Shown here: positions 5,878-57,378 of the stretch, piece after piece | Position numbering within the stretch: position 1 is the first letter of the stretch | How the letters are laid out: every line of letters begins with the position of its first letter | From: an uncultured delta proteobacterium | Lineage (GTDB): Bacteria > Desulfobacterota > Desulfobaccia > Desulfobaccales > 0-14-0-80-60-11 | Reading direction: 5' to 3' | Assembly: GCA_963797235.1 (NCBI GenBank) | Contig: CAWCOX010000008.1 | Location: 115,764-179,763 of the forward strand | Length of the DNA stretch: 64,000 nucleotides | Program-made: the position numbers and the translations under genes | Notes under the pieces: model-generated | The model's database searches: none | Told to the model about the DNA's origin: nothing | What the model saw: only the letters and a program-made list of their open reading frames with translations

Positions 5878-8114
5878 CCGCCCCGAAACGAAGGAACAGC
5901 TCAGGGCAGACCGCAAGAAGCGCCGGGAACGGGCCCTGATCGTCATCACCCTGGTCTTGGTGGTGGCCATCACCTCCCTGGAAGTGCACCTGGTGCCCCG
6001 AGGCGACCAACCGGTCACCGACAGCCTGCTCGCCTACGGGCTGCTCAATATTGATTTCTTTTTGCTGCTGCTCTTCACCTTCCTCATCTTCCGCCATCTG
6101 GCCAAACTCTTCCTGGAGCGGCGTCGCAAGGTCTTCGGGTCCCGGCTGCGCACCCGCCTGGTGCTGACCTTCATCAGCCTGACCCTGCTGCCCACCCTGT
6201 TCCTCTTCATCATGGCCTGGCAGCTTATTTCCAGCCGGGTGGACCATTCTTTTGACCGACAGGTGGAGGAATCCCTGGATAAGGCGGTTGACCTGACCCG
6301 CACCTACTCCCTGGACATGGAGGACAACCTCAAGGCTTGTGGGCGTCTGTTCAGCCTGGAGCTGAAGGCACAGGGCGGCATAAGCTCTGAGCAGCGGGAG
6401 GCGCTCCAGGCCTTCGTGGACCGGAACCGCGCGGCCTACCACCTCAGCGGACTGGAGGTCCTGGACCCCGATAAGGGGCAACTGGCCGGCAGTTTCGACC
6501 CCCAGGCGGGCAAGCTGCCGGGCCTGCCGGCCCCGGAGGCCGGGACGGCAGCCCCGGGAGAGGCGATCATTCGGCAAAAGGCCGGGAACGCCGAGCTCTT
6601 GAGCTGGCTGGGGCCGGTATCCGATAGCGCCGGCGCCCTTCAGGGCTATGTCCTGGTGCGCAAAGGCATTCCCCAGACCCATCTGCTGCGCCAGGCCGCG
6701 GCGGAACGCAGTCTGCAGGATCTGCGCCAACGGCAATTGCAATACAGCCCGGTGAGGGTGAGCCATTACCTGGCTCTGGTCATCGCTACCCTCGTCGCCC
6801 TGATGGCTGCCATCTGGCTGGGGTTTTACATGGCCCGGGAGATCACCATTCCCATCCGCCGGCTGGCCGAAGGCGCTCTGAAGGTGGCCGGAGGCGACTA
6901 TGATATCCACATCGACCAGGAAGGTCGGGACGAAATCGGCTTCCTGGTGCGGTCCTTCAACAAGATGACCCAGGACCTGCAGCAGAGCCAGGCACAGTTG
7001 GCCGCGGCCTACCAGCAGTTGAGCCAGTCCCACGAACTCATCTCCACCCAGAAGCGGGACATGGAAATCCTCCTGAAGAACGTGGCCGCCGGGGTGATCG
7101 GCCTGGACGCCGAGGGCCGGGTCACTCTGATCAACGATTCCGCCGCCCAGATGCTGCAGCTCCAAAGGGAGGCGGTGCTGGGCCGGGAGGCCCGGGTGCT
7201 GCTGCCGGAAGCGGAATACCAGCGCCTGGCCGAAGTGGTGGCCGCAGCCCGCCGCGTGGCCCGGGGCACGGTGGAGAGGCCCCTGCACCTGGTCCTGCCC
7301 AACCAGACCCTTTATCTGCTGGTCAAGACCACGGTGCTCAAAGACGAAGCCGGCCGCGACCTGGGAGTGGTCATGGTCTTCGAAGACCTGACCGAGCTGG
7401 AGCGGGCCCAGCGCCTGGCGGCCTGGCGGGAGGTGGCCCGCCGCATCGCCCACGAAGTGAAGAATCCCCTCACCCCCATCAAGCTGGCGGCGCAGCGACT
7501 ACAGCGGCGTTACGCCGAGCGCCTGGGAGAGGATGGGCAGGTCTTCGACGAATGCACTCAGATCATCGTCAACCAGGTGGATGAACTCAAGAACCTGGTC
7601 AATGCCTTTTCGCGTTTCGCCCGGCTGCCCCAACTGACCCTGGCTCCCCAGGACCTCAACGCCCTGATCCAGGAGACCGTGGTCCTCTATCGTGAATCCC
7701 AACCCCGGGTGGCTCTGGAGTTTCATCCCGACCCCACGTTGCCCCCACTCCTCGTGGACCGGGAACAGGTGAAACGGCTGCTCCTCAATTTACTGGACAA
7801 CGCCCTGGCCTCCATCAACGGGGCCGGGACCATCACGCGTCTCGGTGCGGAGACATCCGGCCGACGGCCGGGTGGAACTCACCGTGGCCGACAACGGCGT
7901 GGGCGTCCCGGACCGGGACAAGGTGCGGATCTTTGAGCCCTACTTCTCCACCAAGCGGGGCGGCACCGGCCTGGGCCTGGCCATCGTCAACTCCATCGTG
8001 GCCGAGCACCAGGGGCATATCCGGGTGGAAAACAACGTCCCCAAGGGGGCGAAATTCATTATCGATCTTCCCATGCACAGGGCCGAATATGCCGGGAAAC
8101 CTGCTGATAGTTGA
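5867..8114 (+). pseudogene. NtrY-like sensor histidine kinase interrupted by one frameshift (about 7838); possibly a sequencing artefact
   Basis: Multi-TM N-terminus, HAMP, PAS, H-box RRIAHEVKNPLTPI and N-box LLNLLDNALASI. After ...NGAGTIT the conserved sequence continues in another frame (VSVRRHPADGRVELTVADNGVGVP...GGTGLGLAIV...). Deleting one base near 7838 restores a single ORF. Confidence 0.8.
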
Positions 8115-9489
8115 CGACGAGCCCCAGATCATCCAGGTGGTGAAGGGCATCCTGCAAGATGAGGGCTTTGAAGTTACCACGGCCCCGGATGGCGAAACCG
8201 CCCTCAAGCTGGCGGCCGCGGAGCCTCCGGACCTGGTGCTTCTGGACATCAACCTGCCGGGCCTCGATGGTCTGGAAGTGCTCAGCGAACTCAAGAAGCG
8301 GCAACCCTGGCTGCCGGTGATCATGATCTCCGCCTACGGTTCGGTGGAAAACGCCGTCAAGGCCACCCGCCTGGGGGCCTACGACTTCATTGAAAAACCC
8401 CCCAACGCCGACAAGATCATCCTGTCGGTGCGCAACGGCCTGGAGTTGGCTCGCCTGGCCGAAGAGAACCGCCGCCTCCGGCAGCAGAGCGGCCGGGTCA
8501 AGGAGATCATCGGCCAGAGCGACGCCGTCGGCCGCCTGCGGGAAAAACTGGCCCTGGTCGCCCCCACCAACGCCTCGGTGCTGATCACCGGCGAGAACGG
8601 CACCGGCAAGGAACTGGTGGCCCGGGCCCTGCACGCCCTGAGCCGCCGCGCCCCCCACGCCTTCGTGGAGGTCAACTGCGCCGCCATCCCCGAAGACCTC
8701 ATCGAAAGCGAGCTCTTCGGCCACGAAAAGGGCGCCTTCACCGGGGCCTCCAGCCGGCACCGGGGCAAATTCGACCTGGCCCACGAAGGCACCCTCTTTC
8801 TGGATGAAATCGGCGACATGAGCCTCAAGACCCAGGCCAAGATCCTGCGCATCTTAGAGGAGCAGCGGTTTGAGCGGGTGGGCGGCAGCAAGCCCATCCA
8901 GGTGGACGTGCGGGTGGTGGCCGCCACCAACAAGAACCTGGAGGAAGAAATCGCCAAAGGCGGCTTCCGGGAAGACCTCTACCACCGCATCAACGTCCTG
9001 CCGCTCACCGTGCCGCCGTTGCGGGAGCGCCGGGAGGACATCCCCCTGCTGGCGGCCCACTTCCTACGGGAACTTTCCGAAGGGGGCGACGCCCCGGCCA
9101 AGACCTTCTCCCCCGCCGCCCTGGAGGCGCTCACCGCCCTGCCCTGGCCGGGGAACGTCCGGGAGTTGAAGAACTTCGTCTTCCGCCTGGCCATCCTCAG
9201 CCCCGGGGCGGTCATCGACACGGCCGATCTGCCCCTGGCCGCCTCGGGCCTGGAGCCGGCGCCGGCCGCAGCCCCGGAGGGCAGCGAGGCCGACCTCCTC
9301 GACCCTTTCCTCCAGGTGCCCTCCTTCCGGGAGGCCCGGGCCCTGTTCGAAAAGCAGTTCCTGCGCCGCAAACTGGCCGAATGCCACGGCAACGTCAGCC
9401 TGCTGGCCGAAAAAATCGGCCTGGAACGCTCGAACCTCTATCGGAAGCTAAAGGCGTATGGGCTGGAACCGGGGAAGGAGGGGGAATGA
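8089..9489 (+). CDS. sigma-54-dependent response regulator (NtrX/NtrC family)
   Basis: Receiver domain LLIVDDEPQI...LLDINLPGLDG; AAA+ [15 protein letters not shown]; GAFTGA loop; C-terminal Fis-type HTH. ATG 8089 overlaps the kinase 3' end. Confidence 0.9.
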   Translation: MPGNLLIVDDEPQIIQVVKGILQDEGFEVTTAPDGETALKLAAAEPPDLVLLDINLPGLDGLEVLSELKKRQPWLPVIMISAYGSVENAVKATRLGAYDFIEKPPNADKIILSVRNGLELARLAEENRRLRQQSGRVKEIIGQSDAVGRLREKLALVAPTNASVLITGENGTGKELVARALHALSRRAPHAFVEVNCAAIPEDLIESELFGHEKGAFTGASSRHRGKFDLAHEGTLFLDEIGDMSLKTQAKILRILEEQRFERVGGSKPIQVDVRVVAATNKNLEEEIAKGGFREDLYHRINVLPLTVPPLRERREDIPLLAAHFLRELSEGGDAPAKTFSPAALEALTALPWPGNVRELKNFVFRLAILSPGAVIDTADLPLAASGLEPAPAAAPEGSEADLLDPFLQVPSFREARALFEKQFLRRKLAECHGNVSLLAEKIGLERSNLYRKLKAYGLEPGKEGE

Positions 9490-9578
9490 GAATAGAATAA
9501 CGAAGTAGAGGTTAATGAGCAAAATTAAGAAATATTTATATTGTACGCATAAGTTTAAGCTGCCTTAAGAGAGTAAAA

Positions 9579-55990: not shown

Positions 55991-56017
55991 AGGGCGCACA
56001 CGCAGGTGCGCCCCTAC
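55991..56017. repeat. REP-like hairpin ending CCCCTAC (nifE-nifN gap)
   Basis: agggcgcacacgcaggtgcgcccctac. Confidence 0.8.
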
Positions 56018-56026
56018 GGTTTCTGA

Positions 56027-57378
56027 TTACCGGCTACTGCTTCTCCGGGGCACAAACCGCCACACCGGACTCATCACGGTGTTATAGACCTCCTGGGCAA
56101 AGTTGAGCATGCCCACGAAGCCTTCCAGACACTCTTTGCGTTCGTGGTTGTGGTCGCAAAAACCCACCCCCAGCTTGAAAGCGATGGGGCGTTCTTTGAC
56201 CCCGCCCACGAAGATGTCCACGTCTTTTTCCTTCAGGAAGCTCGACAGTTCCAAGGGATTGGAGTCGTCCACGATGATGGTCCCTTCGTCGGTGATGTCG
56301 TGCAATTCCTGATAATCTTCTTGGGTCCCCGTCTGGGAGCCCACCAGGACCACCTGCATGCCCAGCAGCCGGAAGGCCTTGACCAGGGAGAAGGCCTTGA
56401 AGGCGCCGCCCACATAAATGGCGGCCTTCTTGCCGGCTCAGGGCCTGTTGGAACTCCCGCAGCTTGGGGAAGAAGGCCGGCCAGTTCCTCCCGGACCAGT
56501 TCCCGGGTGCGGGCCATCATCTCAGGGTCGTTAAAGAAACGGGCCACGGCATAAAGGGATTCGGCCATGTCCTCGACCCCGAAATAGGACACCCGGAGGT
56601 GAGGGATGCCGTATTTCTCCTCCATCATCTTCGCCAGGTCCATGGTGGAGCCGGAGCATTGCACCAGGTTCAGGGCGGCGCCGTGGGCCCGGCCAATGTC
56701 GGCCACCCGGCCGTCGCCGGTGATGTTGGCCACCACCTGGACGCCCATGCGGGCCAGGTAGTCCCGGATGATCCAGATTTCCCCGGCCAGGTTGAAGTCG
56801 CCCAGGATGTTGACGCTGTAAGGGCTGATGCCGGCGGTATCACCGGTGCCCACCAGGCGGAACATGGCCTCGCAGGCGGCGTAGTAACCGGCCCGCTTGT
56901 TGCCCTTAAAACCCTCGGACTGCACCGGCAGGACCGGAATGCCCTTCTCCTGACTGACCTTTTTGCAAACCCCTTCCAGGTCGTCGCCGATCAGCCCCAC
57001 GATGCAGGTGGAGTAGACGAAGGCGGCCTTGGGATGATGCCGGTCGATGAGCTCCACCAACGCCTTATAAAGCTTCGTCTCCGCCCCGAAGATGACGTCC
57101 ATCTCCTGGAGGTCGGTGCAGAAGCTCAGGCGGTGCAGCTCCGGGCCCGACGACAGGGCGCCCCGGATGTCCCAGGTGTAGGCGGCGCAGCCGATGGGGC
57201 CGTGCACCAGGTGCAGGGCGTCGGCGATGGGATAGAGCACCACCCGGGAGCCGCAGAAGACGCAGGCCCGTTGGCTCACCGCCCCGGCCAGGGACTCCCG
57301 GTCGCAGTCCATCTTGAAGGGCGCCTCGCCCTTGCGATGGATTTGATTTTCCCGCTCTTTATAGATCGCCGGTTCCAT
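56027..57378 (-). pseudogene. nifE: nitrogenase FeMo-cofactor scaffold subunit NifE, two frameshifts (56466-56469 and 56434-56436)
   Basis: CVFCGSRVVL...HGPIGCAAY...STCIVGLIGDD...ELAGLLP | (K)LREFQQALS | GKKAAIYVGGAFKAFSLVKAFRLLGMQVV... Confidence 0.85.

Follow-up and report, generated by a model that had tools for sequence, protein, structure and literature searches.

The window analysed here is a 64,000-nucleotide stretch (G000:C8:115764-179763) of the metagenome-assembled genome (MAG) of an uncultured delta proteobacterium of the Desulfobaccales. It carries a series of conserved genes, nifB, nifE and hemW among them, whose reading frames are broken at twelve sites by the insertion of a single nucleotide. 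Neighbouring genes, including lepA, the gene for an ADP-forming acetate-CoA ligase, an nrfA-like gene, nifD, nifK, nifN and nifH, are intact, as the initial annotation of this DNA had reported for the long neighbours that it named. The genome as a whole comprises 3.69 Mb in 23 contigs with 60% G+C (62% in the window) and is estimated to be 90.9% complete, with a bin contamination of 3.8%. Our results rest on the sequence itself and on comparison with its relatives, uncultured Desulfobaccales represented by Desulfobacca-like MAGs of the same genus. Two of these serve as the main references: G001, the closest relative, a short-read MEGAHIT MAG that is 92-94% identical to the window, and G008, a closed congener (chromosome OY969108). 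The twelve sites are listed below; each extra base is given as it falls in the most parsimonious alignment with G001.

7837, plus strand: NtrY-like sensor histidine kinase; extra G, private against 8 congeners; frame +1 at 7833-7859.
17385-17387, plus strand: second HdrA-like gene (HdrA2); GGG against GG in 6 relatives; tblastn frame change at about 17389.
20237, plus strand: CCG-domain HdrB-like gene; extra G, private against 6 relatives; codon-model frame change at about 20258-20262.
35006, minus strand: YbgA/DUF1722-like gene; extra A (plus-strand base), private against 5 loci from 3 genomes.
35885, plus strand: PhaE, directly 5' of class III PhaC; extra T between SHTLN and ALEDFNVAKQ.
47001, minus strand: HemW; extra T (plus-strand base), private against 8 loci; tblastn frame change.
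47649, minus strand: HemW, shortly past the radical-SAM motif region; extra G (plus-strand base), private against 7 loci.
53516, minus strand: NifB; extra G or C, CCCGGGCGG against CCC-GGCGG; private against 7 congeners and against G001.
53843, minus strand: NifB; extra G (or A), CCCCGAAAGGG against CCCC-AAAGGG; alignment and tblastn.
54207, minus strand: NifB; extra C or G, GAGCGAGCAG against GAGC-AGCAG; alignment and tblastn.
56437, minus strand: NifE; extra C, private against 8 congeners.
56473-56474, minus strand: NifE, 36 nucleotides from the preceding site; extra A (less parsimoniously, the G of a GGGG run), private against 8 congeners.

Two independent lines of evidence converge on this list. 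Orthologous loci were taken from up to eight congeners, and alignment against the five to eight available per site shows that all twelve frame breaks are present and that each is a one-nucleotide insertion private to the window. A Viterbi scan of the window with a seven-state codon model, in turn, recovers exactly these twelve same-strand frame changes, all of them +1, and no frame change of the deletion type anywhere in the window. Past each shift, coding potential according to the codon model resumes at once in the shifted frame. The claim of the initial annotation that at least twelve conserved frames are broken by +1 insertions is thus borne out by both approaches, and its proposed comparison with sister genomes finds none of the twelve insertions in any congener.

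Gene names were verified on intact orthologues (NCBIfam) and, for PhaE, by reading the intact open reading frame (ORF) of G001 (L096 11988-12941). The true NtrY-like gene extends from about 5867 to about 8112 so that the last 90 or so codons are shifted; its intact orthologue encodes 748 amino acids and is followed by NtrX. For the second HdrA-like gene, where the intact orthologue matches the NCBIfam model HdrA2/HdrA, it is the 5' part that is shifted, and the insertion in the YbgA/DUF1722-like gene falls within the first 23 codons or so (the G001 orthologue has 315 amino acids). HemW and NifE were assigned via matches of the G008 orthologues to TIGR00539 and TIGR01283, respectively. Three-frame translation around the HemW site at 47649 places the residues from CPYCDF to GGGTPSLLD in one frame and the remaining protein in another.

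Is there anything special about the inserted base or its surroundings? The extra base had initially been read as G or C in every case, often as part of a short run, but neither feature survives alignment. Four of the twelve sites have an A or a T instead: T at 35885 and at 47001, A at 35006 and, in all probability, at 56473. The assignment is unambiguous at the PhaE site, where the G001 flanks are identical over 30 nucleotides on either side. About eight of twelve are thus G or C, as the G+C content of the window predicts (p = 0.50). Genome-wide, G or C accounts for 30 of the 44 extra bases placed against G008 and for 13 of the 21 polarised sites against G001, giving a pooled 43 of 65 where 60% would be expected from genome composition (p = 0.19). 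Similarly, 14 of the 21 insertions precisely placed against G001 have no identical neighbouring base; for comparison, 54% of all bases in the window lie in runs of at least two. The proposed signature of G/C bases and short runs is thus spurious; what sets the events apart is their sign alone. Note that in G+C-rich DNA it is trivial that a frame can be restored by deleting a nearby G or C. Nor does any codon or motif recur at the insertion sites: among 28 of them, the extra base falls in more than 20 different codons, and any given quadruplet is seen at most twice. All sites proposed in the initial annotation are real, but several were off by between 1 and 40 nucleotides. The HdrB-like site had been assigned to a run of five Gs at 20273-20277, where relatives have the same length, and in fact lies about 40 nucleotides upstream. 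Alignment likewise puts an A at 35006 rather than a C at 35010 in the YbgA-like gene, a T at 35885 rather than an additional C in CCC (35886-35888) in PhaE and a T at 47001 rather than an additional C in CCC (46997-46999) in HemW, and it favours an A at 56473/4 over the GGGG run at 56466-56469 in NifE.

The excess of insertions extends well beyond the window. We took long ORFs from 880 kb of G008 and 449 kb of G001, searched them against the whole genome with tblastn and called a frameshift wherever chained collinear high-scoring segment pairs switched frame. With G008 as the reference, 407 orthologues covering 466 kb of alignment contain 84 frameshifts in 63 genes; shifts into frame +1 outnumber those into frame +2 by 69 to 15, and exact +1 events outnumber exact -1 events by 56 to 6 (binomial p = 3e-11). 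With G001 as the reference (273 orthologues, 273 kb aligned), we find 45 frameshifts in 34 genes, split 41 to 4 between frames +1 and +2 and 35 to 2 between exact +1 and -1 events (binomial p = 1e-8). Together, the two references yield 129 events in 739 kb, or 1.75 events for every 10 kb of coding sequence; scaled up to the whole genome, this amounts to some 560 events affecting 12-15% of genes. No large contig is spared, and most have about 1.4-3 events per 10 kb. Against this background, the absence of events from the 10.8 kb of named intact genes in the window is unremarkable (P = 0.13). Hence, the insertion excess anticipated by the initial annotation holds genome-wide, whereas the special base spectrum that was to accompany it does not.

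The broken genes include indispensable ones. alaS, present at a single locus (C20:6088-8731), is broken at about C20 7526-7530, with amino-acid identities of 97% and 92% to either side of the break, and further broken genes include pyrC (with three shifts), leuA, ilvB, nuoG and lon. Downstream of the first shift, substitution rates relative to G001 at codon positions 1, 2 and 3 of the reference frame are 0.055, 0.034 and 0.113, compared to 0.055, 0.036 and 0.105 in intact genes. Equality of these rates implies that the shifted parts have been under unchanged purifying selection throughout the divergence of the two genomes, with no sign of relaxation.

Comparing two genomes does not by itself reveal which of them has shifted. 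A reverse control, in which ORF fragments of this genome were searched against G001 and G008, proved uninformative: each insertion reappears as a '-1' event in the reference because wrong-frame translations of DNA that is 85-95% identical match each other. We therefore used a codon model trained on long ORFs of G001 and G008, which assigns the correct frame to 89% of 150-nucleotide pieces, and asked, for each isolated one-nucleotide gap relative to G001, which of the two genomes switches coding frame. At 21-24 insertion sites and 3 deletion sites it is this genome that shifts, with G001 remaining in frame; the opposite is seen at 1-3 sites. One-nucleotide gaps in noncoding sequence, on the other hand, are symmetric (33 insertions versus 31 deletions), as expected of real indel divergence.

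Three sister MAGs, all with few contigs yet a low estimated completeness, exhibit the same bias. We find 28 events in 47 kb of G003 (8 contigs, 75% complete; exact +1 versus -1: 20 to 1), 15 events in 47 kb of G002 (30 contigs, 84% complete; 10 to 2) and 8 events in 31 kb of G004 (30 contigs, 68% complete; 4 to 1). In all three, the insertion-biased breaks fall at sites of their own, different from those in this genome. G002 corresponds to MFD01872.bin.2.172, a Nanopore MAG built with Flye and Medaka in the Microflora Danica long-read catalogue, whose authors note a low coding density, linked to errors, in MAGs of lower coverage (PMC12313526); the same group found that Nanopore bins under about 40-fold coverage require short-read polishing (PMC9262707).

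Taken together, these observations suggest, with a probability that we put at roughly 90%, that the insertions are errors in the assembly consensus rather than mutations of the organism. The direction of the bias, the privacy of the events, the break in alaS, the lack of decay and the behaviour of the sister MAGs all favour a systematic sequencing or assembly error over random decay, as the initial annotation had surmised; its alternative of a mutational bias finds no support. To judge by a contiguity and completeness profile and an error signature that it shares with the sister MAGs, this genome would come from the same kind of long-read pipeline. We infer the platform, the coverage of this assembly and the step that added the bases as follows. 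The MAG was most likely assembled from error-prone single-molecule long reads of moderate depth and received no polishing with short reads. At places where few reads piled up or the reads disagreed, a spurious extra base would have survived the consensus or polishing step, at about one per 6 kb. The added bases could be any of the four, approximately in proportion to composition, and would lie mostly outside runs, with some local clustering. Each such base would break the reading frame so that gene callers and readers alike would see a split gene.

The closest known system is that of indels in long-read (Nanopore/PacBio) assemblies, familiar from work on the IDEEL test, Homopolish and Kastor (PMC9262707, PMC8011154, PMC12007338). 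As there, we see single-base consensus indels that split ORFs in conserved genes across the genome, are worse in lower-coverage bins and do not appear in relatives assembled from short reads or at high coverage. Whereas that literature emphasises homopolymer indels of both signs, insertions make up more than 90% of the events considered here, and roughly two thirds fall outside any run.

A number of points count against assembly error. With nearly all events being insertions, and most of them outside runs, this is not a textbook Nanopore profile, and the link to a long-read pipeline draws on the contiguity and completeness profile and on the sister MAGs. In addition, events are clustered: fewer distinct genes are affected than random placement predicts (P ~0.001), and nifB and nifE alone harbour five events (Poisson P = 1.7e-4). 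The concentration in these two genes is statistically real, yet it is no evidence that cofactor synthesis has been lost. An artefact accounts for clustering only if one assumes local dips in coverage or a mixture of strains.

Imagine, then, that several strains were co-assembled into a chimeric consensus, and that disagreement between strains, not low coverage alone, made the polisher insert bases. Such a scenario would explain the clustering and is in keeping with the per-gene overdispersion just described, with the contamination of the bin and with the presence of several congeners together in samples of like kinds. It is, however, a variant of the artefact model rather than an alternative to it, and no measurement here separates it from dips in coverage; as a distinct account we give it little chance of being correct.

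Are the insertions perhaps genuine and recent, acquired in a mutator or strongly bottlenecked lineage, with nifB, nifE, hemW and others being true pseudogenes? The deposited sequence does carry them, they cluster in some genes, and a defect in a polymerase or in repair could in principle generate an insertion bias. We nonetheless hold this to be very improbable. First, frame breaks in the numbers extrapolated above, including one in the only copy of alaS, would be incompatible with a viable cell. Second, selection downstream of the breaks is not relaxed, none of the insertions is common to any congener and one-nucleotide indels in noncoding sequence show no bias (33 versus 31). Third, the bias recurs, at other sites, in long-read MAGs obtained independently from sister species, which points to the method rather than the lineage. 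Where pseudogenes would be expected to carry shared lesions of mixed type in the course of decay, the lesions found here are private, skewed 35:2 and 56:6 towards insertion and free of decay. Pseudogene-rich reductive genomes such as those of Mycobacterium leprae or recent insect symbionts likewise contain many frameshifted conserved genes, but they also exhibit decay, indels of both signs, stops, deletions, sharing across the lineage and spared essential genes, none of which we observe.

Finally, the breaks might be decoded in vivo, through programmed +1 frameshifting, quadruplet decoding or slippage during transcription, which would leave the genes functional as written. The common +1 sign of all events fits such decoding, and prfB-type programmed frameshifting likewise changes frame by +1 inside a functional gene. 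We give this account next to no credence. The codons at the 28 sites above are too diverse for programmed +1 shifting or quadruplet decoding, two thirds of events lie outside runs so that slippage would lack a substrate, and in the relatives the same proteins are encoded with no extra base. Frameshifting of the prfB type, moreover, requires a conserved shift site that is kept in relatives.

Several further features of the window deserve mention. Between 17150 and 17290, the first HdrA-like gene lacks an in-frame stop; its frame stays open across a hairpin repeat (GGACAGGCGCCCTCGCCTGTCC) and runs directly into the beginning of the second HdrA-like gene. In relatives, a TAA or TGA closes the gene; in the window, TAA and TAG fall solely in the two alternative frames. 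The likeliest cause is an unseen indel just upstream. At 20216, the HdrB-like gene carries a private in-frame deletion of 9 nucleotides, with the loss of a single unit from an imperfect direct repeat (TTCGGCCGC / TTCAGCCGC) that six of six relatives retain. HemW contains a perfect 16-nucleotide tandem duplication at 47224-47255 (GTGGGGCGGGCGTCTC twice) in a linker of variable length, where it encodes ETPAPHETPAP. The apparent 16-nucleotide insertion that it produces at 47240-47255 is not a frameshift, being in frame with six of seven relatives; these six are 36 nucleotides shorter at this point. Just 3' of the nifB stop, at 53217-53237, lies a 21-nucleotide tandem duplication (AATCAGTTTGACTA..) that the relatives lack. 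A G+C-rich perfect palindrome (GTAGGGGCGGCG..CGCCGCCCCTAC) is situated between nifB and nifN at 54541-54575, and others are found at about 57410-57460 and at 17209-17260. The nifB-nifN palindrome occurs in at least 14 places in this genome and in many places in congeners, a recurrence that indicates a family of REP-like (repetitive extragenic palindromic) intergenic hairpins. Other candidate breaks in the window, at 13868/14232, 15153/15320, 19641/19669, 19954/19970 and 27147/27496, turned out to be ordinary gene boundaries or weakly coding stretches.

Elsewhere in this genome, a giant gene (G000:C4:140272-148551), some 2,900 codons long and 85% identical to its G008 orthologue, contains four +1 insertions. 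Among the sister MAGs, stretches riddled with frameshifts are found at L201-L205 (G003:C4:1700001-1800000), L009-L012 (G002:C23) and L206-L208 (G004:C21). In G003, insertion-type frameshifts reach about six per 10 kb, and nifB alone has six private insertions.

What do these findings mean for the study of this group? The error profile could, as a tentative and rather doubtful suggestion, reflect a hitherto undescribed systematic failure, at low coverage, of a pipeline in wide use for long-read metagenomes. If that were true, thousands of public MAGs would be affected: they would seem to hold too many pseudogenes and to be less complete than they are, and pathways would be wrongly called lost (as in 'nif cofactor genes lost'). 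For those who polish such assemblies, the strong preference for insertions outside homopolymers is a hint of practical use, and it may merit a note to the authors of the pipeline. For the Desulfobaccales considered here, G002, G003 and G004 are unsafe as references when calling pseudogenes or the loss of pathways. With roughly every seventh gene artificially split in this genome, and apparently also in several of the sister long-read MAGs, claims regarding pseudogenes, loss of iron-molybdenum (FeMo) cofactor assembly (nifB, nifE), fused or stop-less genes and unusual small ORFs need frameshift-aware comparison or support from reads.

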